A stretch of DNA of 47,546 nucleotides from a virus, in IMG/VR virus record IMGVR_UViG_3300028534_000006, positions 1 through 47,546 of that record, one strand, 5' to 3'. Positions 7,650 to 47,546 of the stretch are shown here, piece by piece; positions within the stretch are counted from its first letter, which is position 1, and the number at the start of each line of letters is the position of its first letter. The notes beneath the pieces are model-generated. The model made no database searches. It was not told the DNA's origin and saw only the letters and a program-made list of their open reading frames with translations. Made by a program: the position numbers and the translations under genes.

Positions 7650-10600
7650 ATGGAGCAAAACAACGTACTTCCACAAGATGTAAACGATCAGTATACAGTA
7701 CAGCAAGATTATGGTTTTGGTAATAAAGTAGATATAGACCAGCACGGCAATCCTATACAACCGCAACAACAAGTGCAACAAACACCAGAGCAAGATACAG
7801 CGGACGCTTTATATGAAAAAATGTCTAAGTATGACTTTCAAGAAGCCTGGACTAAATATAAAGTATTTAAAGGTACACTGCTTAAAGGTGTGTCAGAAGA
7901 GTTACAGCCATTTGTAGCGGCTAATTTAAATAGTATTGAACAACATTTACGTAACAAGTACCGGGCTAGGCTACGTGCTGAGCTTAAGAAAATACCGTAT
8001 GATAGCTCTGATCGCGCAGAAGCTGAGCAACTATATAGAGACGCTCTACATAGAATGGCTGGTATTATGCCTGCTTCTAAAGTAGATGATTACGTAATTG
8101 ATGCTATAGGTGGCGGCACTATAGCTGCACCATTAAGAGCAGGTAGAATACTATTTAATAGGCTAACTGGTGATACAAAAGAAGCAAATGAATTACAAGT
8201 AGAAGCGAAAGAAATATCTGATGCGCAAAAACAATTTGGTACTGTATCACAAGTAGGTCCGTTAGAAATACCTCTTGATGGTAATATTCCTGCTATGTTT
8301 ATACCATTTAATAGCACAGTACGCGGTTGGACAATGCTAGCGGAAGCTATACAAGCAGATAAAACAGTTAAAGCATTAGGTAAAGCGCAGCCAGTACTTG
8401 ACAAGCTATGGACTGCTGGCAATTTGAGTAAAGTAGGTTTAGCTCGTAATACTGCATTTGGTGCTATGTTTGCGTATGGGTATGGCGCTGACTGGAAAGG
8501 TGCAGTAGTTGGTGGCGTGGCCGGTATGGTTATTCCAGCAGGCGCTTCAGCGATTGGTAAGACAGTCTCGCCCGTAATAACGCACTACTTAGGTACTGAT
8601 TTGGCTAAACAAGAGTTAAATTTAGCTAAGCTAGAGAAATCGGCCGGCGTAACTAAAGATGAGCTTACAACTATTTATAAACAGTATGCAGAGGATGCTA
8701 ATATAGATATGTCTGAGTTGACTCCGGCAGATAAAGCAACTGCTCTAAGAGCTAAATATGATAATATAGATCGCATACTTGCTGCGGCCAGTGAGTACTC
8801 GCCACAAGCACAACGTATTACAGAACAGAAGTCTAAAGAGGCTGTAGTTAAAGTAATGTCTAAACTCTTTGATATTAAACATATAGATGACCCTTCACCG
8901 GCTGGTTTAAAGAAGGCTGCTAAAGAACAAGTAGAAGAGCTTATAGCAGATATGCGCACAGCAATAAATCAAATAACCGATGATATCAGCACATATATAG
9001 CAGACTTTGCGGCTACTTCTAAAAAAGTAAAACTTGATACACCGGTATTTTCAGATGAAATTACTGGTAGTTTACGTAGAGCTATTGATGATATGGACCC
9101 GAAAGAACGTAGAGTATTACGTTCAGTAGAGAAGTTTTTAGACGATAAGCCTAGTATTGACAACTTAGCAGATATAACTAAACTAGAGCGCTTAATACCA
9201 GACAATTTAAAAGCTAGAGCTGAAACTACTAGTGGTATGCCTCTAGAGTCTATGTTTAATGATATTGCGTTTACACACTTAGATGAGTTTGCTTATTCTA
9301 AATACTCTACTATGAAAGATGCTGTTAAATTAAAAGACTGGATGCAAAGTGCCACTGGGCTTAGAACTATATTTAATAGTAATGCACCAACAGAGACAAA
9401 AGCCACTGCTTTACGTAAATTTATGTCTTCAGATAGTTATGCGCCATTAACTAAATTACTATCTGGTAAACAATTAGAGCAACTAGAGGATACTGCTTTT
9501 GCCTCATTATTTACTAAAGATGGTATACTTACTGAAACTGGTAGAGCTAACTTCTGGGCTCTATATAGAGACGCACGTCAAATGCATACAGTTACTGAGC
9601 GCGCAGCGCAAATGAAAGAGTTAATGGCTATGAATGCTAAATATATAGGTAGTAGTAAAATACGCCCTGGCACTAGAACTGAGTATGAGACTGGTAGTAA
9701 AGGTAGATCAAGTATTCAAGAAGAGATGCAGTCAAGGGCTATTGGTCATATTATTGCTTCAGTAATACAGCACTTCCCATTCGACTATGCTAGGCAAACT
9801 TATAATATACGTAATGGCATTAACCTACTTAAAGGTGAAAGAGTTTTTGATGTACGTAGCATAGACGACGCTAGAGTGCTTAGTATTATGGATAAAGCTT
9901 TAACACAGCAAGCAAGAGGTTTACAGGCTCTAAATATAAGTTCTGACTTAACCTACGAACAGTTATTGAGTAAATTGGATAGCGCCTACTTTGATGCTAG
10001 AAGTACTAAGACTACCAGAGCAGCAGCGGAACCTACATTTATGGCTAAAGAAGGCAACACAGATATATATGTACCACATGGTGCTCAAAATGAAGTATTT
10101 AATATACTTAAAACAGATATGAAATTTAATATCAAAAAGCCAGGCGAATATCCATTAAAAGAAGTAGTTCATTCTAAAGCTTTATCAGAGTCTAAAGTAT
10201 GGTCTGATTTGCGTGATTATAAAGTAGTTGTAACGCCTGACTCACCTACTAGGGTTGATGTACACGATAAGAAAATTTATTACAATACCTCAGATGATAA
10301 TGGTAAGCTAGTGCAGGAAATAGCCCATGCTATAGATTATTCAGATGGTAGACGTATAGTAGGTTCATCTGTAGGTATTGAGTGGAAAAATTTACAAAAA
10401 CAATACCCACAATTTGCTGACATATCGCCAGAGTTTATGGCTAATGCTAAGTGGAGTCACCAGTACGCAGTGCTTATGCAGAAATTAGGCGTTACGTCAA
10501 AAGATCAATTGACGCCTGAATTACGTAAACAGTTAAAAGAACTGTCGCCTATGTATAAGTATTTTACAAATGAAGGTGAGATTAGGACACTAGTTGCAGA

Positions 10601-11921
10601 GAAAGGAAATGTTAAAAATAAAGACGAAGTGCTTGAAACTATACGTGGACTTATGCAAAGAGCAGAAGAGTGGTCTGATAAAGCTATAGATGAAGCATTC
10701 AATTACTTAGATAGACAATTTGATGTGTCGGCTAAAGGTAATAAAGTAGATGATACTTATCATGCTGTACAAACTAGAAATTCTAATCCTGCTAATTTTA
10801 CTCAATATGATAATATATTAGCTGACTTAGACATGTTAGTGCTTAATGGTACCAGGAAAATGGACCCTGTGGCTTTGCTAGCATGGCTAAATAAACAAGG
10901 ATATTCAGACAACTACTTAAAAGATATAGGATTTGATGACTTAGTTCTAATGGAAGGCACTAAAGTATCAGTGCCCGCTATTATAACAAGACTAGAAGAC
11001 AAAATGTACTCAGGTAATATGACTAGGACGTACTATGGTACAGAAACACGATTTAGTACTACTATGGATAAAAGCCAACCGTCTAATATTGAGTTGTTAC
11101 CTGCGTTAGAAAATCATTATGAGCGCGTGTTTACTACTGATACTTATGACCTACCTGAGTCTATAACAGAACCTATGGAAACCCACTTTGGCTATTCTGA
11201 CTATAAGTCTCATGCTATATATCGTAATGTTAAATATAATAATGAAAAAGCTGTATATGTACAAGAGTTGCAAAATGACCTACTATCTGCAGGCATGTTT
11301 CCAGATACTGTAGATAAAGCAAAAGCTAAATTAGACAAAGCTATAGCTACAGGTGATGAGCAATTAATTAAGAAAGCTAAACAAGATTATGACTTTGCGG
11401 TAGAAAATGAGCAATTTAAACAGAATCAGTTTGAACGAGAAGATTTAGAAAATGAGCTTGACCGGCTTAACTCTGCTATGCCAAATGAAGACAGTATAGC
11501 GTACTCTGAGTGGGAAGATGAATATATTAATGTGGAACGTCAACTAGCAGAATTAAGTAATGAGAAACCATATGCAACTAAAGATGAAGTACGTAAATAT
11601 GTCGTAGATAAAACAGCTTATATACGTGACGCTATAAATGCTGCTATTAGTGATGCCATGTCTACAGATGCTAGGTATGTAGTACTACCTACTTCAGATG
11701 TAATGATACGTAGATATAATGATGAGCCAGGTAATGCATCTATGTACAAACGGTTGTATGATAAAGACATACCAAAAGTATTACGCAAGTATGCAAAAGC
11801 GCATAATTTAAAGCCGCCGTATAAAGACGGTGAAGTATGGGTTTTAGATATTAAGTCTGTAGCGAACCAAAAACTAGAGAATAAACGTACACAAGCAAAT
11901 GAGTGGTGGTTTAAAATGTAA
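7650..11921 (+). CDS. Very large virion-associated protein (1423 aa), possibly a polyvalent ejected protein.
   Basis: A single uninterrupted ORF directly after the portal. It has a hydrophobic Gly-rich segment (AVVGGVAGMVIPAGASAIG). No catalytic motif could be assigned with confidence. Confidence 0.4.
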   Translation: MEQNNVLPQDVNDQYTVQQDYGFGNKVDIDQHGNPIQPQQQVQQTPEQDTADALYEKMSKYDFQEAWTKYKVFKGTLLKGVSEELQPFVAANLNSIEQHLRNKYRARLRAELKKIPYDSSDRAEAEQLYRDALHRMAGIMPASKVDDYVIDAIGGGTIAAPLRAGRILFNRLTGDTKEANELQVEAKEISDAQKQFGTVSQVGPLEIPLDGNIPAMFIPFNSTVRGWTMLAEAIQADKTVKALGKAQPVLDKLWTAGNLSKVGLARNTAFGAMFAYGYGADWKGAVVGGVAGMVIPAGASAIGKTVSPVITHYLGTDLAKQELNLAKLEKSAGVTKDELTTIYKQYAEDANIDMSELTPADKATALRAKYDNIDRILAAASEYSPQAQRITEQKSKEAVVKVMSKLFDIKHIDDPSPAGLKKAAKEQVEELIADMRTAINQITDDISTYIADFAATSKKVKLDTPVFSDEITGSLRRAIDDMDPKERRVLRSVEKFLDDKPSIDNLADITKLERLIPDNLKARAETTSGMPLESMFNDIAFTHLDEFAYSKYSTMKDAVKLKDWMQSATGLRTIFNSNAPTETKATALRKFMSSDSYAPLTKLLSGKQLEQLEDTAFASLFTKDGILTETGRANFWALYRDARQMHTVTERAAQMKELMAMNAKYIGSSKIRPGTRTEYETGSKGRSSIQEEMQSRAIGHIIASVIQHFPFDYARQTYNIRNGINLLKGERVFDVRSIDDARVLSIMDKALTQQARGLQALNISSDLTYEQLLSKLDSAYFDARSTKTTRAAAEPTFMAKEGNTDIYVPHGAQNEVFNILKTDMKFNIKKPGEYPLKEVVHSKALSESKVWSDLRDYKVVVTPDSPTRVDVHDKKIYYNTSDDNGKLVQEIAHAIDYSDGRRIVGSSVGIEWKNLQKQYPQFADISPEFMANAKWSHQYAVLMQKLGVTSKDQLTPELRKQLKELSPMYKYFTNEGEIRTLVAEKGNVKNKDEVLETIRGLMQRAEEWSDKAIDEAFNYLDRQFDVSAKGNKVDDTYHAVQTRNSNPANFTQYDNILADLDMLVLNGTRKMDPVALLAWLNKQGYSDNYLKDIGFDDLVLMEGTKVSVPAIITRLEDKMYSGNMTRTYYGTETRFSTTMDKSQPSNIELLPALENHYERVFTTDTYDLPESITEPMETHFGYSDYKSHAIYRNVKYNNEKAVYVQELQNDLLSAGMFPDTVDKAKAKLDKAIATGDEQLIKKAKQDYDFAVENEQFKQNQFEREDLENELDRLNSAMPNEDSIAYSEWEDEYINVERQLAELSNEKPYATKDEVRKYVVDKTAYIRDAINAAISDAMSTDARYVVLPTSDVMIRRYNDEPGNASMYKRLYDKDIPKVLRKYAKAHNLKPPYKDGEVWVLDIKSVANQKLENKRTQANEWWFKM

Positions 11922-12077: not shown

Positions 12078-13319
12078 TCACAAGTAAATTTCCTCATAGT
12101 ACTTACTATTATAATTTTCGCGGTTCTCAGCCACTGTCTTATATACTTGATCACTTATAGCGCCTTTAACTAATGGATAATGCACCACTATTGGGTCTTC
12201 TCTATATAAACCACACTGTCTAGCTCGCCTCTGAATATACTTAACCGTTCTAAAGCTCATGCTATAAACTACTAGTGTATCCATATGAGACAGGTCTACA
12301 CCTTCAGCATATGCGCTACCTTGTAGTATCATAGCCTTAGGAAAAAACTCTCTCAATAGCTCAGCCTCAGCTTGATACTCATGCATAATAACTAGCTTGT
12401 CGCTATCACCAAATGTATCAAGTATCCACTGCGCCTTGAAGGCTATAGATTTTAAAAGTAATGAAACATGGTAAGTCTCACTTTCAGGTATGTATTTTAT
12501 AGTGGCCCCCTCTAGTTGGTGTAGCTTAGTTCTTAGAGACATATCACTATCAGCAAGTATTACATGATTATCTATCTCTAGTACTTTATTACGTTGTAAT
12601 GTATTGTACATTTGCTTGAATACTTCAGGCGGCTCTAAGTAGTGTAATTTATCTGTCGGCTCCTGTGTAAACCCTAACTGAGCTCTTGTATATTTTATAA
12701 ATCCTCTTTCTACGTCAGCAAGTACTAAATCATCTTTTGTCTTAGTACGTATAGTTCTAGGGCCTTGTTTTGTGTATACAATTTCAGGAATACCATAATG
12801 CTCAAACCATTTATAGAAAGTAGTATACTTACGCCAAGGAGACCATGTACACATGTTTATTTGGTTGTATAGCATATAATACCCTTGTGCGCTTGGCGTT
12901 GCTGATATAAATATGATAGGTTTATTTCTCATTACTTGACGCCCTAGCTTAATACGCTCACTCATAGTAGCCCGCTTAGCGCCCTTCTTTTTAGTTCTAG
13001 CTGTACTACCAAAATTATGGGCTTCATCAAGTATCACCATATCATACTTATCACCGTCTACAGTATGTAAACTATCCATGCTAACTATATCATAGTTCTT
13101 AGTTAAAGGCAGATTTTTTAAGTGGTCTTTCCAGCCAGGTATAGCCTTACTTGGGCATATAATTAAGTAGTTCTTATACGCTATGCGCTCACATGCCCAT
13201 AAAGCCATGCCAGATTTTCTAGTACGCTCTTCAGCTACTAAATACGCCCAGCCTAGCTCTTGGAGTATTTCAACTATTTTATTACCTATCTCTTTTTGGT
13301 AGTCTACAAATTCCCACAT
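12078..13319 (-). CDS. SNF2/DEAD-like superfamily 2 helicase.
   Basis: DEAH box (VILDEAHNF), LIICPSKAIPGW, and helicase C-terminal-like motifs (QRRARQ). The ATG at 13319 follows GGAGG and forms a TAATG overlap with the deaminase stop. The track start at 13331 is a TTG. Confidence 0.75.
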   Translation of the reverse strand: MWEFVDYQKEIGNKIVEILQELGWAYLVAEERTRKSGMALWACERIAYKNYLIICPSKAIPGWKDHLKNLPLTKNYDIVSMDSLHTVDGDKYDMVILDEAHNFGSTARTKKKGAKRATMSERIKLGRQVMRNKPIIFISATPSAQGYYMLYNQINMCTWSPWRKYTTFYKWFEHYGIPEIVYTKQGPRTIRTKTKDDLVLADVERGFIKYTRAQLGFTQEPTDKLHYLEPPEVFKQMYNTLQRNKVLEIDNHVILADSDMSLRTKLHQLEGATIKYIPESETYHVSLLLKSIAFKAQWILDTFGDSDKLVIMHEYQAEAELLREFFPKAMILQGSAYAEGVDLSHMDTLVVYSMSFRTVKYIQRRARQCGLYREDPIVVHYPLVKGAISDQVYKTVAENRENYNSKYYEEIYL

Positions 13320-13744
13320 TAGTGCCTCCAATTATGAACTACTGTCACACCATTAGCTGTTAAATACATTAAACCTTTAGAACCAGTACTTGTTAAATTA
13401 GTATAATATACATACTTTATACCTGCTTTAACTAGCTCTTTAGCACAGTTTATGCATGGCGCATGAGTTACATAGGCCGAGCATGCTACTACTGATATAC
13501 CATAAGACTTAGCCATACGTAGAGCATTAATCTCCGCATGTACAACACCAGGCAACGTCTCGCCATGTTCATCTTCACATATATTGTCGACTCCTGGCTC
13601 TGTGCCGTTATATCCAGTAGCAATAATACGTCGGTCACATACTAAAACACAACCTACTTTATGTCGTTTACAGTATGATAACTTCGCTACTTCTTCCGCT
13701 ATATTACCATATGCAATATCAAATCTATTCAAAACTAAACTCAT
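13319..13744 (-). CDS. dCMP deaminase (cytidine/deoxycytidylate deaminase zinc-binding family).
   Basis: HAEINAL ... PCINCAKELVKAGIKYVYY is the H-A-E / P-C-x-x-C zinc signature with the typical dCMP deaminase context (GYNG). Confidence 0.85.
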   Translation of the reverse strand: MSLVLNRFDIAYGNIAEEVAKLSYCKRHKVGCVLVCDRRIIATGYNGTEPGVDNICEDEHGETLPGVVHAEINALRMAKSYGISVVACSAYVTHAPCINCAKELVKAGIKYVYYTNLTSTGSKGLMYLTANGVTVVHNWRH

Positions 13745-14076
13745 AGCATTCCCTCAAATTTTACTATACCTGGTATTTTAAACGGTACGCGCCCGTAAGA
13801 AGTATCTCTTAATACTCGTATTACATCATCTAATGTATTAGTACATATAGCCTGGCCACCAGCTCTTATGACGCCATTTAACCATAAAGCTTGGTGCGCA
13901 TCAGGCTCTGGGCGTCTACCTTCATCTTTTACTTCTATCGCTATATAGCGGCCATAATGGCATACAAGTATATCTGCTATACCATTAGTACTACCGCTAT
14001 GTATTTTGTCTACTTTTGTCATTGAATTAGCTTTTAAATACTTAAGTATCTTTTCTTGTATATCACTTTCAGCCAT
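13741..14076 (-). CDS. VRR-NUC domain nuclease.
   Basis: GIADILVCHYGRYIAIEVK (PD-(D/E)xK-type D...E-V-K) followed by QALWLNGVIRAGGQA is typical of VRR-NUC. The ATG at 14076 follows AGGAG, and I prefer it to the track start at 14100. Confidence 0.7.
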   Translation of the reverse strand: MAESDIQEKILKYLKANSMTKVDKIHSGSTNGIADILVCHYGRYIAIEVKDEGRRPEPDAHQALWLNGVIRAGGQAICTNTLDDVIRVLRDTSYGRVPFKIPGIVKFEGML

Positions 14077-15313
14077 TATCAAACTCCTGCTTATCTTCAC
14101 GTATACACTTAAATACAGGTATAGTTACAGAGCCATCGTCAGTAATTTCATTGTACGTAAGCTCTATAACTTTACCTATTACAGGCTCACGCCAATATTG
14201 CTCTCGTTGAAAATCTGTAAAACCTGTGCCTACTCTAAATTCTAACTGCTTATCATTATAAGTAGCCACGCATATAAATGCACCAAGTCTGCCTGCATGT
14301 TTACCTTCACCTTCAACTATATCTACAATCTTAGCATCTAAAGTTTTAGCTTCTTTAAAACGCATCCAGTCCCAACTACGTTTAAATGAGAACTTATGAT
14401 TTTTAGGTTTTACAACTATGCCTTCAAAGCCTGCGGCTAACTCTTTAGTTAGAAATTCTTGTACATCTTCTTTAGTTGAGCCCTCTTCCATATGTATAGG
14501 AGACATCCAGTCAAAGTTCATAGCTGCAGCAATTGAACGTAGGGATCGTTTGTAGTATGGTGTATTGCACTTTTTAGTTTCCCACTCTTCTTTTGTTAAG
14601 TAATCAAATACTTTAAACTTTAGTTCCTGGCGTTCACTCGCTGTAGCTGTGCCTACTCTACACTTAGTGCATATACCTTGTGTAATTGTGCGTTCACCTA
14701 GTTTACCACACTTAACTATAGCCTCAGTAACTAGTACGCCACCAAAATTAACATCACGTATGTCCTGGCTGTACTCAGGTAAATGTAACTCTTCACCATT
14801 TCTTGTAAAGAACCTATCACCTATAATGTATACATTATTACCATCATACTTACGCTCCATATAAAACTCAGATGGTAACTTACTATAGTCTAAGTCTTTC
14901 GCCTTTTGAACTAGGAACTCAGTTATAAAAGGCTCGCCAAGAGCTGCATTTATAGTTTTAGCGCCTAGAGCTACTCCAGGTATACGACGATTGAAAATTG
15001 AATACGCAATAATACCGTATTCTTTCAGTAAATACTCACAAGTCTCTCTATGGGCATCAGAGCGTGTTTTACTACGTAAGTTTTGCAGTGTATGAAATAA
15101 TAAAGTGCAATCATTATTTATATTTACACGCAGCGCATCAAAGTCTTTCTTATTTACTTTAAAGTTATACTTATAAGTAATAGTATCAAATGTATACTTT
15201 AAAAATTTTTTAACTGACTCTGAGTTTATATGCTGTTTAACTACTGATTTCAAAGCAATAGCACCACTAGCGTTGTGTGCTACGTTTATAAAAGCCATAA
15301 TGTCTTTACACAT
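14069..15313 (-). CDS. ATP-dependent DNA ligase.
   Basis: Adenylation motif I K-x-D-G (ERKYDGNNV), motif IV-like FEGIVVK, and motif V-like WMRFKEAK. C-terminal OB-like region. The RBS AAAGGAG precedes the start. Confidence 0.8.
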   Translation of the reverse strand: MCKDIMAFINVAHNASGAIALKSVVKQHINSESVKKFLKYTFDTITYKYNFKVNKKDFDALRVNINNDCTLLFHTLQNLRSKTRSDAHRETCEYLLKEYGIIAYSIFNRRIPGVALGAKTINAALGEPFITEFLVQKAKDLDYSKLPSEFYMERKYDGNNVYIIGDRFFTRNGEELHLPEYSQDIRDVNFGGVLVTEAIVKCGKLGERTITQGICTKCRVGTATASERQELKFKVFDYLTKEEWETKKCNTPYYKRSLRSIAAAMNFDWMSPIHMEEGSTKEDVQEFLTKELAAGFEGIVVKPKNHKFSFKRSWDWMRFKEAKTLDAKIVDIVEGEGKHAGRLGAFICVATYNDKQLEFRVGTGFTDFQREQYWREPVIGKVIELTYNEITDDGSVTIPVFKCIREDKQEFDNG

Positions 15314-15684
15314 TAGAACTCCTTTCCGTGCTTATATGGTCGCGAGGCATTTAGTTCTGATTTCCATGCTAACTGAGTCTCTATATCTATACCCATAAAT
15401 CCTATTAAATCCATCAGTCTAAGAAGTGTGTCCGCTAGTTCATCTTCAAAAGTGTCTTTCTCACGTAGACCGTACTTATCTTTACGCATTGCCTCAACTG
15501 CTTCACCAACTTCAGACATAATTAGTGCTAGTCGTGTTGCTATAGCGTTATTGTATAATTCTTGATTAAAGTCAGTGTCTGTCTCTACATACTTCATATC
15601 GTCCCAAAAACCTTTTTTAAGCATATTTTTATTATGCTCGTGGCATGCTTTATTAAACCCCTCTGGCAATGTGGCAAATTTCAT
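15313..15684 (-). CDS. MazG-like nucleoside triphosphate pyrophosphohydrolase.
   Basis: MSEVGEAVEAMRK ... EDELADTLLRLMDL matches the E-x-x-E ... E-x-x-D all-alpha MazG signature. Confidence 0.75.
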   Translation of the reverse strand: MKFATLPEGFNKACHEHNKNMLKKGFWDDMKYVETDTDFNQELYNNAIATRLALIMSEVGEAVEAMRKDKYGLREKDTFEDELADTLLRLMDLIGFMGIDIETQLAWKSELNASRPYKHGKEF

Positions 15685-15887
15685 TTTCTCTCCTTATATG
15701 TAAATGCTGTCAATGTTTGTATTGTTTTATCTCGCTGCTTGATAGCCTCATCGCTAGTTATTGTGCCTGTACGCTCTTTATCATATGTTTTGCGTAACAT
15801 AGTAAGTATTAACTCACTACTTGTTAGCGTAGCCAACTCTAACTTAATTGTACCGGGTAGCTTCTTAAATTGGTTTGTACACATCAA
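15681..15887 (-). CDS. Hypothetical protein (68 aa).
   Basis: The ORF is translationally coupled on both sides. No motif recognised. Confidence 0.55.
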   Translation of the reverse strand: MMCTNQFKKLPGTIKLELATLTSSELILTMLRKTYDKERTGTITSDEAIKQRDKTIQTLTAFTYKERK

Positions 15888-16266
15888 TTATAGTCCTCAC
15901 ACTTGTATAGACAGTAAATATTTTCTTATACTCAGTCAAACGAAACTGCTTACACTTTTTACCTAAGTGATCGCTGCGTACAACAAATAATACATCTGGT
16001 TTATAAGCATCTAAAGTACTAATACCAAGATTAACTATAGGCATGCCACTGTCTAGCAACTCTGCTATATCCTGTGGGTTTGTATATACGCCTTTAGCTA
16101 CTTTACGTATAGACGGTGGCAGCATAACTTCTGTATTTTCTGAGCAAATAATCGCAGCATCTTCGCAAAATTGCTTAAGTATAAGCTTATCATCTATAGG
16201 TCTTTTTGGTATCTTGCCATCAACTAGATAGCAATTGTCATATGTCAATAATAATATTCCTACCAT
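15865..16266 (-). CDS. Hypothetical protein (133 aa), with a weak resemblance to the DHFR/RibD_C-like fold.
   Basis: It lies directly downstream of the ThyA-family gene. The pattern is a hydrophobic strand, then G-K-I-P...D..L.K.F....AII.S..T, then ...IVNLG. This is only a loose match, so the function is not claimed. Confidence 0.5.
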   Translation of the reverse strand: MVGILLLTYDNCYLVDGKIPKRPIDDKLILKQFCEDAAIICSENTEVMLPPSIRKVAKGVYTNPQDIAELLDSGMPIVNLGISTLDAYKPDVLFVVRSDHLGKKCKQFRLTEYKKIFTVYTSVRTIIDVYKPI

Positions 16267-16267
16267 A

Positions 16268-17050
16268 TTATGCCTTTAGTTTAAATTTTATTACAGGTTC
16301 ATGCTGATAGTCATACACTCGTAAATCATCAGGTCTAAATAAACCTGTATATGTATACTCATACTTTGGTGGTGTATGCATAGGCCTGTTTAAATATGTA
16401 TATGCATCGTCAAAATGCTCTTTATAGATATGAGTATCAGCTAGTACTAGTTGTACTGAGCCTACTTTTAAATCAGCAGCCGCTGCTATATACAGTAGCA
16501 TTGCTGACGCAAATATAGCGTCTGATGGTAGGCCCACCATAGTGTCCACACTTCTCTGATACCATATCATATGTACTCTGTCGTTATTATCAACGTAAAA
16601 CTGATACAATAAATGACAGCAAGGTAAACTAAGATCTCTACTACTTGGGTCCCACCCAGTAATAATATGGCGCCTGTCCATAGGTCTATATCGTAAGCTG
16701 TCAAGTAGTTGCTCCATTTGATTTATACCGTGAAAGTCATACCACTTATTACCGTAGTCTACTCTAATACTACCATCTTCATCAGCCCAGTCTTTCCAAT
16801 AATTACAGCCCCACTTCTCAAAATCGTTTATATGCTTTGGCTGCCTAAGCATTGCTGCCAACTCACCAAGTACACCTTTGTAAAACATCTTACGGCCTGT
16901 AAGTACTGGTATATACCCTGCCGATAAATCAAATGTTATACCGGCACCAAATATTGCTTTTGTTACACCATTACGTGTATGACGTGTTTCACCGTGCTGC
17001 AAAACATGCTGAACTAAATTTCTATAATGCGCTTCAAATGCTACTGCCAT
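16268..17050 (-). CDS. ThyA-family pyrimidine C5 (hydroxy)methylase with Asp at the Asn177-equivalent position. I predict it acts on dCMP.
   Basis: It aligns without gaps to E. coli ThyA from YQRS to DTH. Conserved features are LPCCH (catalytic Cys), DRRH, YWKDWADEDG, YGNKW and ADTHIY. The specificity position reads GLPSDAI instead of GLPFNIA (Asp177, GAC at 16520-16522). Confidence 0.7.
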   Translation of the reverse strand: MAVAFEAHYRNLVQHVLQHGETRHTRNGVTKAIFGAGITFDLSAGYIPVLTGRKMFYKGVLGELAAMLRQPKHINDFEKWGCNYWKDWADEDGSIRVDYGNKWYDFHGINQMEQLLDSLRYRPMDRRHIITGWDPSSRDLSLPCCHLLYQFYVDNNDRVHMIWYQRSVDTMVGLPSDAIFASAMLLYIAAAADLKVGSVQLVLADTHIYKEHFDDAYTYLNRPMHTPPKYEYTYTGLFRPDDLRVYDYQHEPVIKFKLKA

Positions 17051-17370
17051 TAAAAATCCTTCTGTACAATATTATGCCATTCATCTATAGTATCATCTTG
17101 TTCAAGCCAAATGAGAAAAGCCAAATTAGTTATTGCATGTGATAAATGTGATAACCCTGACTCTCTATCAGTTAACTCACCAGCACGCCATGCTTCTAAA
17201 TGGCGATATAATGCATCTAAGTACCTATTTTCAGCGTCTTCAACTAACTGCCAGTTGTTAGGACCATACTTCTCAGCACCAAAAGTAAGTACTTTAGCCA
17301 TTTCTCTTGTAACTACAGGCGGGATTAACCCATACCGTAGTTTGCCTTTATCGTATTTAATACCTTCCAC
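17050..17370 (-). CDS. All-alpha dNTP pyrophosphohydrolase of the dATP/dGTP diphosphohydrolase (MazZ-like, DUF5664) family.
   Basis: DKGKLRYGLIPP...VLTFGAEKYGPNNW...RHLEAW..GE..D.ESGLSHLSHAITNLAFL matches my recollection of this phage family. GTG start after AAGGAG. Confidence 0.6.
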   Translation of the reverse strand: MEGIKYDKGKLRYGLIPPVVTREMAKVLTFGAEKYGPNNWQLVEDAENRYLDALYRHLEAWRAGELTDRESGLSHLSHAITNLAFLIWLEQDDTIDEWHNIVQKDF

Positions 17371-25739: not shown

Positions 25740-25771
25740 ATTATACCATAGTTTAGCTTAAACCTTCATTA
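25740..25771 (-). promoter_or_regulatory. Phage-consensus promoter variant (TAATGAAGGTTTAAGC-N7-TGGTATAAT).
   Basis: Read on the minus strand. It overlaps the last codons and stop of the primase-helicase gene. Confidence 0.55.
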
Positions 25772-28700
25772 GTCGAGCTGCTGGCTAAACTTTTTGTTAT
25801 TTCTGCTCGCCAATCTAACGTAGAATTTAGTATTTTATCTGATAAATCTTTAAATGTAAGCTGTCCAACTGTCCTACTTATTAAATTGTATAATTCTGGT
25901 GTCATAAGTACTACATTATATTTATCTGCTAATTCTATCAACTTATCAGCACGCTTAGCTTTATACTCTAACTGAAACTCTTTCTTAATATCATTATGTA
26001 CATAAGTAGATACCCAATCTGTATTCTTTGACTGCTTTAAGTGGCTCTTATGTGGTAATAATAAATCATAGGCCAACGACTTAGTAAATCTACCGCGCTC
26101 ATGCCATGGACTTTGATCAATAGCTTTAAACATCTTATTTACTGTAGTAAAGTCATTCACTATGTCATTGACTTTCTTAAGCGACCATGGTTTTAAAGCG
26201 TATGGCATTTGGCATGCTCGCACATCCTCAAATGGCTGCACTAACTCATCAAATGTGACCTTTGAGCGCGCCCCCTCTGATAATGATATATTTATTAAAA
26301 ATGTAACATCTGCCCTATGTATGATTAGCCTATCGTCTTTTGCTGGCGAGTCGTCCAGCATATATAATATTGCGGGCCTATCAAGTATTGCTTGCAAATA
26401 CTCTTCCTCTCTATCATCAGAAGTATAGTCGAACATATCCGCAACCTCTAGTTTTTGTATATGATCTGACAGTGATTTGCTTGATGCTATGCTAGCCTCC
26501 TGGATTTGATGTTTTACTGGTGGGGTTGGAACTTCAGTTTTAAAGTATACCTCTAGTTCTGAGCGATTGTAATTATTATCAAACAACCATCTTAAGTATT
26601 TAGCAAAATTAAGTACGTCTTCATGCTCTGGTCGCATATGCCGTAGATCTGACTGTAGCTTATTTAGTACTTGTGAAGGCATATCCTGTGACCTCTTAAT
26701 TTCTATTGGAAACCACCTACGATCTTGCTTGTCTGGTATTTTAGGCATATAATTTGACGTCACAAGTACCATTAGGTCCAACTCTATCTCACGAATTGAC
26801 ATACCTTTACGCTCAATGGGATACCGTACTTTATAGTCACCAAGTATCTTCAATTTCTCATATAGTTCTGCACTTAGCTGTTGCTGCTTAAACTCAACCT
26901 CAGTAAGTGTGGCTATACGCATCTGGTCAAAGTTTGGACTAAAGCGCCCAACTACTTGCTTAGCTTGTACTTCTTGCGCTGTCTGCCCAAATAATAGGCG
27001 CGGTATCAGCGACGTCATGTTTGACTTACCTGCCCCCTGCTCACCATAAAACACATACACACCCATTGGCGACATGTGTTGGCTATATAATGCTATTGAT
27101 AACATAAAATGGAACCAAGTAAGCTGTGTGAATGGCGTATTATTGTGCATATATATTTGCTTGCCATGCCTATTGGTTATTACTGCTTCTGGTATACTAT
27201 AATAATATTGTTGCCATAGTATATTTGACTTAATTTCATCTATAGTTATATGCTCATTTTGTTGTACCATCTGAGCAGGTGTAGTAGGTATCTTATTATA
27301 TGTTGGTGGTTGCACTGTCAAATCCAACTGGCCTATTTGCTGGCGTTGTACTGAGGCTATTAATTGCACTGGCTCCAAAGTATGCAATTTGTCAAGTAGT
27401 TTATCCACCTGCTCTTTTGCCGCTTTCATCACTTTATTACGCGTTTTATAGTCTAGTGCGTCCACTGTCTCAGCACCATAGTGAGCAGCCATGTCATTTG
27501 CTTTTTTAATTTGTAAGTGCTTTTGCACAAACCTTGGCGATCTTAGGTCTATTTTATCTGTGGCTAATTGTAGCAGCACCTCATCTTGCTTTGGGTCATA
27601 CATAAAGTATGTAATCTCACCTAATGATGTAGTTGTCGGCAAGTAGTTGTACACTTTATTACCACGCATATACACCATCTCGTTATTTAGTGAGTACACA
27701 TTGAGGTTATGCTTATTCTTTTGCTGTAGTATATGCATTGTATCACCCGGCTGGCGGTATTGTATATGCGCACTTGGGTCTATTGACTCAGACACTGGAG
27801 CCTCTTCCTTAGGTAGCGTATTCTCAGCAAACGTCCAAAACTTAGCTAGATAGTTGTCGATTGTAAATTGTTTATACTGCGGCGCTGTAAGTATAAAGTC
27901 CTTTAGCCAAAATACTGCCAATGCTTGGCGCTCTTCCTCATCAAGTAATGTTTGTGAATAGCAGGCCAATGTTGCCGTCCTGTAGTAAGTATAATTATTC
28001 TCGAGCACTGGCATACCAATATTACGCATACTATTAACTAGTGTCGTCGGCGGTTTGTGATACTGTGTGACTTTGCGAGCTGCGTAGAATGCGTCTGCTT
28101 TCACATTTGCGTTGGCGTGTGTTGGTGCTGCTGGGTTGAATATGTTATTATAGATTGCGCATAGGCCTTCTGATGTGCACCCATCCTTTGACAACTTATT
28201 ATGCACTATTGGCGCCAACGGCGTACCCTCCAACTTTTTTAAGTCGTCGACTGTTAAATTGTAGCCATGGTGTACGAATGCTTGTATATAACCCGCTAGC
28301 TCTGCGTCAGTGTACGAATATAAATCGTCTGAAGTATAGTGATTTTGTGATGCTAGCTCCTCATTTGTCTTCTCCAGCAAGTAGGTGTTGATTATGTCAA
28401 TATCGGACTGAGTGAGTGTATGTAGCGGTTTGTTTTGAGCTATCCACTCATCTGACAACTCATCTTTAAGAGTACCTGTCTCTGCATCCCAATAGCGCAA
28501 ATACCCCTCAAACACAAATCCTGATGGCAAGTAGTCACCAACTATCTGTGTGCCGTTTATTGAAGTCTCGCTCGTCGTATCTCCTCGCGCTACTGAGGTC
28601 TCGCTCGTCGTATCTCCTCGCGCTACTGAAGTAGTTATCTTCGCTCTCTTAGGCCATATGTTATTTAGTGGTTCGTACTTAGTTATGTCTGGCACTTTGA

Positions 28701-29109
28701 ACCATATGTGCACTTTATCTTTTGAAGAGCCGTAAGTAATGAATGTATTTTTAACTGCTGGAAGTATTGATGCTAGCGCTTTGACGGCGTCTTTAGCATT
28801 TTTGTCTATATCTATGACTATAAACTCAGGTATTGTAGATTGTGACTGCTGTTCTAAGAACACACGAACTACGTGGTCACCTCGCCGTACATTACTACCT
28901 GGCTTAATTTTGAGGTTTTTGAACTCTTTCTTTGGCTTTAATTGTGTGAGTTCGCCCCCTCTTGATATAGATGTATTTAGATTAGACTGTCCTGTATAGT
29001 GTGGGTTTATGTCTACTGCGTGCTTTCTTAGCGCTGATTTTCTATCGTACGCTACTTTAGCTAAGTCTATATTAAGATTGGCTATTAAGTAGGTTAGAAT
29101 ATTTTGCAT
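25753..29109 (-). CDS. Bifunctional primase-polymerase (AEP) / SF3 (D5-like) helicase.
   Basis: AEP motifs FIVIDIDKN and KVHIWFKV. Walker A VFYGEQGAGKSN in the C-terminal half. The ATG at 29109 follows AAAGGAGAGG. The track start at 29166 lies at or near the predicted transcription start, so I reject it. Confidence 0.8.
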   Translation of the reverse strand: MQNILTYLIANLNIDLAKVAYDRKSALRKHAVDINPHYTGQSNLNTSISRGGELTQLKPKKEFKNLKIKPGSNVRRGDHVVRVFLEQQSQSTIPEFIVIDIDKNAKDAVKALASILPAVKNTFITYGSSKDKVHIWFKVPDITKYEPLNNIWPKRAKITTSVARGDTTSETSVARGDTTSETSINGTQIVGDYLPSGFVFEGYLRYWDAETGTLKDELSDEWIAQNKPLHTLTQSDIDIINTYLLEKTNEELASQNHYTSDDLYSYTDAELAGYIQAFVHHGYNLTVDDLKKLEGTPLAPIVHNKLSKDGCTSEGLCAIYNNIFNPAAPTHANANVKADAFYAARKVTQYHKPPTTLVNSMRNIGMPVLENNYTYYRTATLACYSQTLLDEEERQALAVFWLKDFILTAPQYKQFTIDNYLAKFWTFAENTLPKEEAPVSESIDPSAHIQYRQPGDTMHILQQKNKHNLNVYSLNNEMVYMRGNKVYNYLPTTTSLGEITYFMYDPKQDEVLLQLATDKIDLRSPRFVQKHLQIKKANDMAAHYGAETVDALDYKTRNKVMKAAKEQVDKLLDKLHTLEPVQLIASVQRQQIGQLDLTVQPPTYNKIPTTPAQMVQQNEHITIDEIKSNILWQQYYYSIPEAVITNRHGKQIYMHNNTPFTQLTWFHFMLSIALYSQHMSPMGVYVFYGEQGAGKSNMTSLIPRLLFGQTAQEVQAKQVVGRFSPNFDQMRIATLTEVEFKQQQLSAELYEKLKILGDYKVRYPIERKGMSIREIELDLMVLVTSNYMPKIPDKQDRRWFPIEIKRSQDMPSQVLNKLQSDLRHMRPEHEDVLNFAKYLRWLFDNNYNRSELEVYFKTEVPTPPVKHQIQEASIASSKSLSDHIQKLEVADMFDYTSDDREEEYLQAILDRPAILYMLDDSPAKDDRLIIHRADVTFLINISLSEGARSKVTFDELVQPFEDVRACQMPYALKPWSLKKVNDIVNDFTTVNKMFKAIDQSPWHERGRFTKSLAYDLLLPHKSHLKQSKNTDWVSTYVHNDIKKEFQLEYKAKRADKLIELADKYNVVLMTPELYNLISRTVGQLTFKDLSDKILNSTLDWRAEITKSLASSSTNEGLS
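28562..28627 (-). repeat. In-frame 33-bp tandem duplication inside the primase-helicase gene (protein repeat SVARGDTTSET x2).
   Basis: The two units differ at one base. The segment is visibly G+C-richer than its surroundings. Confidence 0.9.
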
Positions 29110-29181
29110 TGCCTCTCCTTTATAATATGTACAAAGTTTAAGATAACTGTAGTTTAGCAGGTTCAACTATCTTAATATTTT

Positions 29182-31125: not shown

Positions 31126-31530
31126 TTAGTTTAATTCTTTGATAAGTTTCAATTGATCTTTAGTGAAGCCTGTATCATCAAACTCGTGCTTGATTGACTC
31201 AAGATGTTTTATATCTTTCTTGATGGCTTCAATATCTGCATCTTCGTCAAAAGCGGATGCTTTCAACTTTTCAATGTCTCTAGTTACTTTCTTAAGATGA
31301 GACTCAGCAAATCTGCAGTGACTGTAGTAACCGTCTTTTGCTCTTGAATTTCTTGGGAATACTTCAATTGGCTCATATCGTTTGTGTCTTGAGCACCACT
31401 TAGCTATGATTTTGTCGCCATCATAGATTGGAGCATGTGCCCTAGTGTCATTGTGTGCATGTGCAATCTCTAGAACTTTCATAGCCTGATCTTCAGTTAG
31501 CCCAATTTCAAGTAATTGTTTCTTAGTCAT
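31126..31530 (-). CDS. Small protein of unknown function (134 aa) with a C-x2-H ... H-C pattern, in a monocistronic unit.
   Basis: RBS AAAAGGA. WCSRHKRYEPIEVFPRNSRAKDGYYSHC could be a zinc-binding element. It has its own terminator and is flanked by the 16-bp inverted repeat. Confidence 0.7.
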   Translation of the reverse strand: MTKKQLLEIGLTEDQAMKVLEIAHAHNDTRAHAPIYDGDKIIAKWCSRHKRYEPIEVFPRNSRAKDGYYSHCRFAESHLKKVTRDIEKLKASAFDEDADIEAIKKDIKHLESIKHEFDDTGFTKDQLKLIKELN

Positions 31531-46717: not shown

Positions 46718-47508
46718 CGTATGAAACATATAACAAGTTATCAAAAGACGTAAAGAAAAAACTTTTAAATGAAAAAATACTTGAACTTAGAAATCTTTGG
46801 GATGTTACGCTAGGAGCAAATCCAACATATGATCAGTTGGCTGCAGTACAAAAATGGGCATTGAGTCATTTTGATTATACACCTGATGGTTATCAGTTTA
46901 ATAAGGAAGACATGTGGGATCCACTCGCATTTGAAAAGATGCTTTTAGTCGATAAATTAAAAGACGATTGCGACGGTTTTGGATATGCAATACTTGGTAT
47001 TATGTATCATGTATTCGGAATGAAAAAACAGGATATATACCGTGTATCATGTGCAACAGAAACAAATGAAGGACATTTTGTTGCATGGGTTAGATCAAAA
47101 TCAGGTATAGTATACCAACTTGAAAACAGAGTTCGTAAACCGCGTACAATAAAATATATGAGAGAGCTTGGATATGAATACTGGCATTACAGCCCTATGA
47201 CAAATGTAGGGCAATGGTTTAATGCAAAAAAGAAAGCTGCTGAATTTGTGTATGATACTCCAATTAAAGCTGCAGGCAACGAACCCGAGCTAAATGTAGG
47301 AACTATGATCAAAGCAACACCAAAGTCAAAAACATTGATGTTTGGTTGGTTAGATAAACTGATTACTACAAGTATCGGAACATTAGGTGCTCTTGCTACA
47401 CAGGCTGACTGGAAAGTAGTCGCTGCAATAGGTGGCTACGCGGTAGTTACACTAGTTGTTATTTATATTATTAGGGCGATGACTAATGAGCCTCTTGAGT
47501 TTAAATAA
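46714..47508 (+). CDS. Transglutaminase-like / papain-fold cysteine peptidase domain protein with a C-terminal TM anchor.
   Basis: DDCDGFGYAILG (Cys) ... EGHFVAWV (His) ... QLEN fits a Cys-His-acid triad arrangement. C-terminal TM helix VVAAIGGYAVVTLVVIYII. It lies directly upstream of the spanin genes across the closure point. Confidence 0.45.
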   Translation: MTYETYNKLSKDVKKKLLNEKILELRNLWDVTLGANPTYDQLAAVQKWALSHFDYTPDGYQFNKEDMWDPLAFEKMLLVDKLKDDCDGFGYAILGIMYHVFGMKKQDIYRVSCATETNEGHFVAWVRSKSGIVYQLENRVRKPRTIKYMRELGYEYWHYSPMTNVGQWFNAKKKAAEFVYDTPIKAAGNEPELNVGTMIKATPKSKTLMFGWLDKLITTSIGTLGALATQADWKVVAAIGGYAVVTLVVIYIIRAMTNEPLEFK

Positions 47509-47546
47509 ACCATTATTAGTAATGTTAGCCGTGTCATTAGTTGCTA
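47420..47546. repeat. Second copy of the 127-bp terminal overlap.
   Basis: Identical by eye to 1-127. Confidence 0.95.

Follow-up and report, generated by a model that had tools for sequence, protein, structure and literature searches.

An aspartate at the specificity position of a phage ThyA-family enzyme predicts methylation of dCMP

In canonical thymidylate synthases (TS), Asn177 (E. coli numbering) hydrogen-bonds O4 and N3-H of dUMP. What does a ThyA-family enzyme make when this residue is aspartate, and what would its product mean for the DNA of a phage that encodes it? The question is raised by a gene at positions 16268..17050 (- strand) of the window, the 47,546-nt stretch of viral DNA analysed here, which a 127-nt terminal overlap identifies as a complete genome of 47.4 kb. 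An earlier note, made from the letters of this DNA, had predicted that the enzyme modifies C5 of dCMP and that the phage DNA contains modified cytosine. All available computational evidence supports that prediction, as does the N177D rule published for TS homologues of phages (PMC8670742; bioRxiv 10.1101/2024.12.05.627091; PMC13326640). In our best explanation, the gene probably encodes a folate-dependent dCMP C5-methyltransferase (5-methyl-dCMP synthase), and the phage DNA would carry 5-methylcytosine (5mC) in place of C. The central idea has already been published and is experimentally supported for similar metavirome enzymes, and it will not surprise a specialist.

Asp177 in a ThyA-family protein

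The open reading frame begins with ATG and codes for 260 amino acids. Its product matches the Pfam Thymidylat_synt profile (PF00303) at E 4.7e-62 over residues 8-258, with a score of 210 bits against a curated cut-off of 24.3 and with profile positions 2-264 of 266 covered. All of the motifs quoted in the earlier note were located, starting at residues 84 (YWKDWADEDG), 99 (YGNKW), 125 (DRRH), 142 (LPCCH), 164 (YQRS), 173 (GLPSDAI), and 204 (ADTHIY). The catalytic Cys146, Glu58, Tyr94, His207, and Tyr209 and the phosphate-binding Arg21, Arg126, Arg127, Arg166, and Ser167 are present and are invariant among 120 homologues. With the exception of Asn177, every catalytic and folate-binding residue of ThyA is kept. 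Neither a second TS nor a ThyX was found in the complete genome, which has this single TS-family locus.

The exceptional residue, Asp177, is encoded by a GAC codon (16522-16520, - strand) that can be read directly from the sequence. The protein and E. coli ThyA can be aligned gap-free from YQRS to DTH, in the same numbering, which places D177 at N177. Five phmmer alignments with thymidylate synthases of solved structure give the same pairing, as do two MAFFT alignments with E. coli ThyA and T4 gp42 among the sequences, in which D177 also stands opposite T4 Asp179. The comparison with ThyA and gp42, which the earlier note had proposed as a check, finds at the specificity position the Asp expected of a dCMP C5-methyltransferase and not the Asn of a canonical TS. 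Asp also occupies column 177 in 119 of the 120 nearest database homologues, in 71 of 72 non-redundant IMG/VR members of the clade, and in all six GenBank phage relatives checked (KF-1, VPMS1, PH1, Amaethon, Kolga, and MW202665; five are cultured). In a large and diverged clade, with 45-55% identity between its members and the window protein, about 99% share this residue; by these alignments Asp177 is therefore under selection and neither a product of chance nor a sequencing error.

A change from Asn to Asp at this position can turn a canonical TS from dUMP to dCMP, yielding 5mdCMP, and Asp177 is enriched among metavirome contigs with modified cytosine (PMC8670742). When deaminase-linked enzymes of this type, here called TS(Asp), were assayed in vivo, five of seven made 5mdC and two gave none (bioRxiv 10.1101/2024.12.05.627091). 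The clade of the window protein has a further signature in which Pro145 is replaced by Cys (giving LPCCH) and Phe176 by Ser or Ala, and these substitutions may tune the enzyme for dCMP. A megablast search with 8 kb around the TS gene against 50,697 phage records returned no match, and by this measure no sequenced phage is close to it in nucleotide sequence. In the literature on phages KF-1, IW-1, ETP-1, ZHX, VPMS1, PH1, Amaethon, and Kolga, no reports of restriction resistance or modified bases were found.

Neighbouring genes and a predicted route to 5mC

Directly upstream of the TS gene lies a gene for a 106-aa DUF5664 (dGTP_diPhyd_N) protein (17050..17370, - strand; PF18909, E 3.8e-33); the stop codon of this gene and the start codon of TS overlap (TAATG). 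This candidate dNTP pyrophosphohydrolase matches phrog_801, 'dATP/dGTP pyrophosphohydrolase', at E 2.6e-39; a sequence-profile search against the PDB gave chance matches only. For one standalone DUF5664 protein, that of Arthrobacter phage Wayne, hydrolysis of dNTPs to dNMPs has been demonstrated (PMC12884076). An unrelated T7-like phage also carries a DUF5664 gene directly upstream of TS(Asp), and in many relatives of the window phage DUF5664 is fused to a deaminase. We propose the window protein as a candidate dCTPase.

The removal of dCTP or other dNTPs from the pool could also fall to a 123-aa MazG-like nucleotide pyrophosphohydrolase (15313..15684, - strand), which matches the MazG (E 3.8e-5) and PRA-PH (E 0.0054) profiles of Pfam as well as phrog_3301, 'pyrophosphatase' (E 6.6e-20). 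PRA-PH is one of five domains that co-localise with the deaminases of modified-cytosine phages (bioRxiv 10.1101/2024.12.05.627091). In searches of low sensitivity, the T4 gp56 dCTPase showed no similarity to the MazG-like protein or to the DR2231-like pyrophosphatase of KF-1 (pairwise BLAST) and had no match on the window (tblastn).

One nucleotide downstream of the TS gene is a gene for a 133-aa protein (15865..16266, - strand) that has no Pfam or PHROG match. Its AF2 model (pLDDT 95.2) has the fold of dihydrofolate reductase (DHFR): the best 50 Foldseek matches in the PDB are all DHFR (best E 5.5e-8, TMq 0.60-0.69), and every named match among the best 41 in BFVD is a viral DHFR, although many matches are nameless. 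Profile searches of this family against the PDB reached DHFR at E 0.06-2 only, below threshold, and in these matches the invariant D26 of the family stands opposite the catalytic Asp of DHFR. A profile comparison with the single DHFR sequence of Xanthomonas phage Xp12 was not significant, and hhalign found no relationship among the 133-aa family, the DR2231-like pyrophosphatase, MazG, and DUF5664. All eight IMG/VR homologues are encoded 0-163 nt downstream of a clade TS gene. The 133-aa protein is proposed as a putative DHFR that would recycle the dihydrofolate (DHF) made by a methylase. Between its gene and the MazG-like gene, a 68-aa ORF (15681..15887, - strand; a 67-aa gene call on the source contig) has no Pfam or PHROG match.

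The last member of this group is a dCMP-deaminase-family enzyme of 141 aa (13319..13744, - strand; Pfam dCMP_cyt_deam_1, E 1.4e-21). Its gene is 2.5 kb from the TS gene, inside the 3-kb distance used for 5mC-selective cytidine deaminases (mSCD). The protein carries HAE and PCxxC zinc motifs and matches phrog_174 (E 3e-45), and its best PDB match is the dCMP deaminase of cyanophage S-TIM5 (4p9c, E 1.4e-22). The preference for 5mC among mSCD is polyphyletic and is without a published sequence signature. Such deaminases have been proposed to make dT from 5mdC nucleotides (Yang et al., bioRxiv 10.1101/2024.12.05.627091), and by analogy the window deaminase may turn 5-methyl-dC nucleotides into dT nucleotides.

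Of the non-redundant clade loci, 40 have wide flanks, and 38 of these encode Asp177. A deaminase is present in 35 of the 40, and DUF5664 or a DR2231-like pyrophosphatase in 30. The two rare Asn177 members keep similar neighbourhoods, one with the order TS, 114-aa protein, deaminase, and the other with TS beside a DHFR-like gene and no deaminase within 8 kb. Since these members share the neighbourhood, it is by itself no proof of dCMP chemistry.

If TS(Asp) is a dCMP methylase, its Asp177 would cause the base site to take the N3/4-NH2 face of cytosine instead of the N3-H/O4 face of uracil. Because the remaining TS machinery is intact, the full methylation reaction would be expected, in which a Cys146 adduct receives the methylene from CH2-THF and a hydride transfer then yields 5-methyl-dCMP and dihydrofolate. 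The DUF5664 protein, the MazG-like pyrophosphatase, or both would convert dCTP to dCMP, clearing the one and supplying the other as substrate for methylation by TS(Asp), and the adjacent DHFR-fold protein would regenerate THF. Host kinases would presumably raise 5mdCMP to 5mdCTP, which the phage family-A polymerase would incorporate, such that 5mC replaces C in the virion DNA. Part of the 5-methyl-dC nucleotide pool would pass through the deaminase to dT nucleotides, providing thymidine without a dUMP-specific TS.

The earlier note had seen no glycosyltransferase or dNMP kinase and expected downstream chemistry that was unusual or host-dependent. Neither type of gene is detectable in the complete genome, and the only P-loop motifs that a scan found lie in a helicase, a primase, and a 1423-aa ORF of the virion-gene region. 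A missing glycosyltransferase is no obstacle because 5mC needs none. Dependence on the host is a fair expectation for the phosphorylation of 5mdCMP, but the chemistry need not be unusual, given that the DUF5664, DHFR-fold, MazG-like, and deaminase genes would complete a conventional pathway. Older literature reports the induction of a 5mdCMP kinase by Xp12. In heterologous assays, TS(Asp) is co-expressed with T4 gp1 (bioRxiv 10.1101/2024.12.05.627091).

The lack of a detectable dNMP kinase also suits another reading, in which dCMP is methylated chiefly to open a dUMP-independent route to thymidylate (dCMP to 5mdCMP to dTMP, by way of the deaminase) and little or no 5mC enters the DNA. The deaminase accompanies TS(Asp) in 34 of the 38 Asp loci and is often fused to DUF5664, and the proposal of Yang et al. 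that such enzymes make dT points the same way. So may the under-representation of GATC and CATG in the genome, where some restriction pressure evidently persists, but there is no avoidance of the remaining 4-mer palindromes that contain C, or of 6-mer palindromes taken together. Moreover, the characterised deaminase mSCD-B5 needs triphosphate substrates (bioRxiv 10.1101/2024.12.05.627091), which implies a pool of 5mdCTP, and two pyrophosphatase-type genes suggest the active exclusion of a canonical dNTP. TS(Asp) contigs were also recovered because their DNA resisted cytosine-dependent enzymatic selection (PMC8670742; bioRxiv 10.1101/2024.12.05.627091). A route that serves thymidylate and leaves the DNA largely unmethylated therefore seems unlikely.

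The predicted product

The earlier note left the product as either 5-hydroxymethyl- or 5-methyl-dCMP. A modified dCMP remains supported, and residue rules are available for distinguishing methyl, hydroxymethyl, and hydroxy products (PMC13326640; PMC6400193). The window TS(Asp) keeps Leu143, Trp80/Trp83, Tyr94, Cys146, His147, Asp169, and the full C-terminal tail, and hence the hydride-transfer apparatus, which consists of a hydrophobic residue at 143, Trp80/Trp83, Asp169, and the tail that seals the site. In dCMP hydroxymethylase, the substrate water is activated by an acidic residue, Asp or Glu, where E. coli ThyA has Leu143 (PMC13326640; PMC6400193). T4 gp42 has Asp145 there, whereas Leu143 is invariant in the clade of the window protein. 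The rule for this position is only correlative, and the Xp12 dCMP methylase shows Asn or Val there in two alignments. T4-type enzymes also have a tail-less, open, and water-rich folate site, but the window protein can be aligned with E. coli ThyA right through to the C-terminus, and its tail is modelled at pLDDT ~94-98. The window protein and 119 of 120 homologues have Asp169, and this retention rejects a flavin-dependent 5-hydroxy-dCMP synthase of the RB69 gp48 type, which has D169N (PMC13326640).

The AF2 model of TS(Asp) (pLDDT 95.7) matches full-length E. coli ThyA in Foldseek with a TM of 0.92 and an rmsd of 1.6 A over ~264 columns. Its best 50 fold matches in the PDB are all true thymidylate synthases, with no dCMP hydroxymethylase structure among them. 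The DHFR-fold gene next door makes sense only if DHF is produced, and so it speaks for methylation and not for hydroxymethylation, which yields THF. Because of Leu143, Trp83, Asp169, the intact tail, the full-length ThyA-like model, and this adjacent gene, methylation to 5-methyl-dCMP is favoured over hydroxymethylation or hydroxylation as the predicted reaction.

It is distinctly unlikely that the enzyme is instead a dCMP hydroxymethylase like T4 gp42, which would make 5-hydroxymethyl-dCMP and THF and lead to DNA with 5hmC or a derivative. The Asp at the specificity position is common to both enzymes, the TS(Asp) set of Yang et al. was predicted to yield 5hmdC or 5mdC (bioRxiv 10.1101/2024.12.05.627091), and Xp12 breaks the Leu143 rule. 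In addition to the residues, tail, and fold matches described above, however, TS(Asp) is 22% identical to gp42 versus 30-31% to E. coli ThyA, and a DHFR would be needless beside a THF-producing enzyme. Searches of the complete genome found no gene for decorating 5hmC, such as a glycosyltransferase or carbamoyltransferase gene, and deamination of 5hmdC nucleotides would give 5hmdU and not thymidine.

A functional thymidylate synthase, or a dual dUMP/dCMP enzyme, would use dUMP made by the deaminase to produce dTMP and would leave the DNA canonical. The window protein does pass the cut-off of the NCBIfam thymidylate synthase model TIGR03284 (139.6 vs 108.35), and the inspected relatives are all annotated 'thymidylate synthase' except MW202665, 'pyrimidine hmase'. 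A set of deaminase, TS, and DHFR-like genes equally suits a canonical dTMP pathway, and the two Asn177 clade members have similar neighbourhoods. This reading is nonetheless very unlikely: the near-complete fixation of Asp177 implies selection, Asn-to-Asp mutants switch to dCMP, natural Asp177 enzymes go with modified-cytosine DNA, and the other seven NCBIfam thymidylate synthase models matched are all below cut-off (e.g., NF002497, 174 vs 327).

Known systems and wider meaning

The predicted methylation system matches the module of TS(Asp), deaminase, PRA-PH, and PolA that has been tied to phage genomes with 5mC (Yang et al. 2021, 2024). As in the window, the MetaGPA phages with TS(Asp177) from marine and aquatic metaviromes (PMC8670742; bioRxiv 10.1101/2024.12.05.627091) have Asp at the N177 position, a deaminase at <3 kb, a PRA-PH/MazG-type pyrophosphatase, and a family-A DNA polymerase, and they too are metagenomic with podovirus-sized genomes. 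The five co-localised domains listed for them do not include a DHFR fold or DUF5664, both of which are present in the window.

Xp12 (MT664984), whose DNA has C fully replaced by 5mC (PMC7653180), likewise combines Asp177 with TS, deaminase, and DHFR genes that occur together. Its deaminase is 34% identical to that of the window, but the two TS proteins share only 23% identity, below that between the window TS and E. coli ThyA, and Xp12 has Pro147, Thr151, and Asn or Val143 where the window TS has His, Gln, and Leu. From these comparisons the two enzymes look like separate Asp lineages, with the window TS a putative functional analogue and not an orthologue of the Xp12 protein. Xp12 is also a 64-kb siphovirus with a ribonucleotide reductase, unlike the window phage, and its DHFR is a recognisable 162-aa protein rather than the cryptic 133-aa form.

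The E. coli ThyA N177D and L. casei TS N229D mutants methylate dCMP (PMC8670742; PMC13326640). Like the window TS, they combine a canonical active site with a single Asn-to-Asp change, and all other residues of the window TS within reach of the substrate are identical to those of the E. coli enzyme. Unlike these laboratory mutants, the window TS belongs to a natural and conserved lineage with the Cys145 and Ser/Ala176 signature. T4, with gp42 and the gp56 dCTPase, shares both the Asp at the specificity position and the logic of converting dCTP to dCMP, modifying C5, re-phosphorylating, and incorporating the product. In contrast to T4, the window is without a glucosyltransferase or a gp1-like kinase.

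A bolder proposal, which we regard as possible but doubtful, is that the LPCCH/Asp177 clade represents an independently evolved, self-contained, and kinase-less system for replacing C with 5mC. It would include two undescribed enzyme types, namely a minimal DHFR of ~120-135 aa that sequence profiles do not see and a DUF5664 pyrophosphatase specific for dCTP. If true, the DUF5664-deaminase fusions of many relatives would couple dCTP removal to thymidine supply. These fusions and the compact DHFR-fold protein are candidates for enzyme discovery.

The label 'thymidylate synthase' is probably wrong for these proteins, and annotation pipelines keep spreading it since one NCBIfam equivalog model passes. 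If our preferred reading of the gene as a dCMP methylase is true, a large and widespread group of 40-48-kb podovirus-like phages, whose cultured members include phages of Edwardsiella, Vibrio, Pseudoalteromonas, Dickeya, and Pelagibacter, carries fully 5-methylated cytosine. Such methylation would affect bisulfite, EM-seq, and nanopore sequencing of these phages and their use in phage therapy or aquaculture, and it would alter their sensitivity to restriction and possibly to CRISPR defences.

Asp177 in a lineage of thymidylate synthase-like enzymes

Because nucleotides 1-127 are identical to 47420-47546, the window represents a complete, circularly assembled genome of ~47.4 kb. Pfam and PHROG scans were applied to nearly all un-nested ORFs of at least 90 aa, leaving out a 1423-aa ORF (7650-11921), and from these the phage is judged to be podovirus-like. 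Its replication module comprises a primase, a Dda-like helicase, a T7-type SSB, a family-A polymerase, a 5'-3' exonuclease, a ligase, and an SNF2-like helicase. A very large primase-like protein (1137 aa; 25753-29166, minus strand) is recognizable only at residues ~700-820, which match DUF5906 and phrog_1156 'DNA primase'. A low-GC stretch (30% GC, 30-32 kb) separates the replication and packaging modules and includes a 134-aa ORF (31126-31530, minus strand) with weak PHROG matches to HNH endonuclease (E 2.4e-5) and a Lar-like restriction-alleviation protein (E 4.1e-5).

The single thymidylate synthase (TS) family gene (16268-17050) begins with ATG and lies within a tightly packed run of minus-strand genes. 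Its 260-aa product is spanned entirely by Thymidylat_synt (Pfam E 4.7e-62), matches PHROG 160 'thymidylate synthase' (E 3.3e-69), and retrieves many solved thymidylate synthases with phmmer (best 3ix6, E 1.2e-41). Every TS motif named in the earlier note is found at its stated position. That note also proposed Asp in place of the Asn that specifies dUMP, and this assignment is borne out. The codon is GAC (16522-16520, minus strand), and in five phmmer alignments with solved TS structures 'vglpsDai' falls on 'lgvpfNia' without gaps. Two MAFFT alignments that include MG1655 ThyA and the T4 dCMP hydroxymethylase (gp42) assign D177 to the column of E. coli N177 and T4 D179.

A collection of 5.8 billion proteins contains an identical protein on one metagenomic contig of 47,560 bp. 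Its relatives there number more than 1,000 at E <= 1e-30, and even the closest shares just 55% identity. When the best 120 relatives were aligned with E. coli ThyA, Asp177 and D169 were each present in 119 of the 120, and R21, E58, W80, Y94, R126, R127, L143, C146, H147, Q151, Q165, R166, S167, G173, H207, and Y209 were invariant. The clade is further distinguished by Cys in place of Pro145 (LPCCH) and by Ser or Ala in place of Phe176. An IMG/VR scan with the clade alignment yielded 80 loci, which when pooled with earlier loci gave 72 non-redundant TS sequences, all but one carrying Asp177. The six nearest GenBank phages (Edwardsiella KF-1, Vibrio VPMS1, Pseudoalteromonas PH1, Dickeya Amaethon, Pelagibacter Kolga, and uncultured MW202665; 43-49% identity) all have both Asp177 and Asp169. 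Asp177 is therefore, judging from these alignments, a fixed and selected character of a large lineage.

Chemistry of the enzyme and its DHFR-fold neighbor

Substitution of Asp for Asn177 can redirect a canonical TS from dUMP to dCMP, yielding 5mdCMP, and Asp177 marks metavirome contigs with modified cytosine (PMC8670742). We consider it highly probable that the window enzyme acts on dCMP. The earlier note had left the product as either 5-hydroxymethyl- or 5-methyl-dCMP; its dCMP-directed reading is supported, and Leu143, Trp83, Asp169, and the C-terminal tail favor the methyl form. A bulky hydrophobic residue at position 143 (Leu143 in E. coli) keeps water out and accompanies methylation, Asp or Glu at this position accompanies hydroxymethylation (T4 gp42, MilA), and flavin-dependent 5-hydroxy-dCMP synthases are marked by D169N (PMC13326640). 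Solvent access in TS is controlled by Trp83 and Leu143; in the T4 enzyme the substrate water is activated by Asp145, and there is no C-terminal tail of the kind with which TS closes off its active site (PMC6400193). The window protein has Leu143, Trp80, Trp83, Asp169, and His147, and at the C-terminus its alignment runs to the end of E. coli ThyA.

An AlphaFold2 model (pLDDT 95.7, 61 sequences) superposes on E. coli ThyA over its full length (TM 0.92, rmsd 1.6 A). The best 50 PDB matches of the model are all thymidylate synthases, with no dCMP hydroxymethylase among them. Sequence identity of the protein is 30-31% with E. coli ThyA, 23% with the Xp12 dCMP methylase, and 22% with T4 gp42. The protein thus resembles a naturally occurring version of the N177D mutant made in the laboratory, with a reductive methylase turned toward dCMP, and it comes from a lineage separate from that of the Xp12 enzyme. 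In the latter, residue 143 is Asn or Val, depending on which of two alignments is used, so the position-143 rule is a correlation.

One nucleotide past the TS stop begins a 133-aa ORF (15865-16266, minus strand) that has no Pfam or PHROG match. Its aligned IMG/VR homologs display a DHFR-like N-terminal pattern, and a family profile matches mainly DHFRs among PDB sequences, weakly (E 0.06-2), with the family-invariant Asp26 falling on the catalytic Asp. A database search with this profile returned 59 homologs, all unannotated and none with a Pfam domain. For an AlphaFold2 model (pLDDT 95.2, 58 sequences), the best 50 PDB matches are all dihydrofolate reductases (best E 5.5e-8, TMq 0.60-0.69), and among the top 41 matches in BFVD, a viral structure library, every named entry is a viral DHFR, many entries being nameless. 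The family may be a minimal DHFR missed by sequence profiles.

Family members usually lie directly downstream from the Asp177 gene. All eight IMG/VR homologs sit 0-163 nt downstream from a clade TS, and one database homolog occurs in the order PolA, exonuclease, TS, 133-aa homolog, deaminase-DUF5664 fusion, and ligase; another, more distant homolog is placed elsewhere. A DHFR-fold gene beside the sole TS-family gene makes sense if the enzyme yields dihydrofolate, that is, if it methylates. In Xp12 the TS, deaminase, and DHFR genes are side by side, and the window similarly adjoins its TS gene with a DHFR-fold gene.

Candidate nucleotide-pool genes around the TS locus

The start of the TS gene overlaps (TAATG) the stop of a 106-aa DUF5664 (PF18909) protein (17050-17370; Pfam E 3.8e-33). 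Beyond the DHFR-fold ORF, on the same minus strand, are a 68-aa ORF (15681-15887), a MazG-like pyrophosphatase (15313-15684; Pfam/PHROG), a ligase (14069-15313), a small endonuclease-like ORF (13741-14100), and a 141-aa dCMP-deaminase-family protein (13319-13744; Pfam E 1.4e-21) with HAE and PCxxC motifs. The deaminase has cyanophage S-TIM5 dCMP deaminase as its best PDB match and is 34% identical to that of Xp12.

Neighbors were counted with profile HMMs at 40 non-redundant clade loci whose flanks span 1.5 kb or more upstream and 7 kb or more downstream. A deaminase was detected at 35 loci, DUF5664 at 22, a DR2231-like pyrophosphatase at 23, one or both of the latter two at 30, and the DHFR-fold protein at eight. 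DUF5664 stands alone in the window and is joined to the deaminase C-terminus in many clade members, including KF-1 (ORF-27, labeled hypothetical), Amaethon, and PH1; further examples of the fusion are L100:4354-4959, L001:9350-9955, and L027:5202-5804.

In Arthrobacter phage Wayne, a DUF5664 protein that likewise stands alone is reported to hydrolyze dNTPs (dATP, dUTP, and dGTP) to dNMPs (PMC12884076, 2026), which marks the domain as catalytic. On the model of the T4 dCTPase gp56, one pyrophosphatase-type neighbor is proposed to clear dCTP and supply dCMP; no similarity to gp56 was detected for the pyrophosphatase-type proteins compared. The gene order PRA-PH/MazG-like, DUF5664, TS(Asp177) also occurs in an unrelated T7-like phage (contigs L008-L010, carrying P0025) that has a single-subunit RNA polymerase and a backbone unlike that of the window. 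The module appears to move between phage lineages.

Two rare clade members have Asn177. In L068 (8004-8816, IMGVR_UViG_3300037247_000787) the TS gene is followed by a DHFR-fold gene, with no deaminase within 8 kb, and in P0031/L104 (8001-8792) it is followed by a 114-aa ORF and a deaminase. Because these members keep similar gene sets, the deaminase and DHFR-fold genes can also serve the canonical dUMP route, and neighborhood alone is no proof of dCMP chemistry. The two loci offer naturally occurring controls for the change in specificity.

Possible fate of the predicted 5-methyl-dCMP and relation to described phages

Neither ThyX, a recognizable DHFR, a dNMP kinase, nor a glycosyltransferase was found by Pfam and PHROG among the scanned ORFs; the earlier note likewise saw no dNMP kinase or glycosyltransferase. 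Walker-A motifs are limited to the helicase, the primase, and the 1423-aa ORF of the virion-gene region. With no phage kinase found for 5mdCMP, its phosphorylation would fall to host enzymes. The same gap speaks for a less likely alternative in which 5mdCMP is mainly an intermediate of a dUMP-independent route to dTMP and little 5mC enters DNA. On balance we lean toward a dCMP methylase by way of which 5mC enters the phage DNA.

Across the window, GATC (58 observed vs. 100.5 expected, ratio 0.58, z -5.0) and CATG (112 vs. 168.6, ratio 0.66, z -5.4) are the only strongly depleted 4-mer palindromes. Most C-containing 4-mer palindromes are at expectation, as are 6-mer palindromes as a group, with GATATC (4 vs. 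13.6) and TCTAGA (3 vs. 8.3) individually low. The depletion could possibly reflect host restriction enzymes that are insensitive to 5mC.

The window agrees gene for gene with the modified-cytosine contigs of Yang et al. (bioRxiv 2024, 10.1101/2024.12.05.627091). In that study, 70% of the dCMP-deaminase genes from modified-cytosine contigs had a TS gene within 3 kb, vs. 6% in unmodified contigs, and for 85% of these co-localized TS genes the residues present predict 5mdC or 5hmdC. The top co-localized domains were TS, MafB19-type deaminase, PRA-PH, and DNA_pol_A with its exonuclease. In vivo, 5mdC was produced by five out of seven TS enzymes of this type, and many deaminases favored 5mC substrates, which suggests that dT is made from 5mdC nucleotides.

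The window module is therefore of a kind already described, and both the Asp177 rule and the module were published before. Our findings extend slightly beyond this in defining an LPCCH/Asp177 lineage of its own with cultured phages among its members, a cryptic DHFR-fold family, and the coupling of DUF5664 to TS together with its fusion to the deaminase. Nearly all GenBank relatives (KF-1, IW-1, ETP-1, ZHX, VPMS1, PH1, Amaethon, and Kolga) are labeled 'thymidylate synthase', and 'pyrimidine hmase' is applied only in MW202665. Because the window protein still passes the cut-off of the NCBIfam equivalog TIGR03284 despite Asp177, automatic annotation will continue to assign a probably wrong function to such enzymes. 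Two side results merit follow-up, the family of minimal DHFR-fold proteins and the fusions of DUF5664 with the deaminase.
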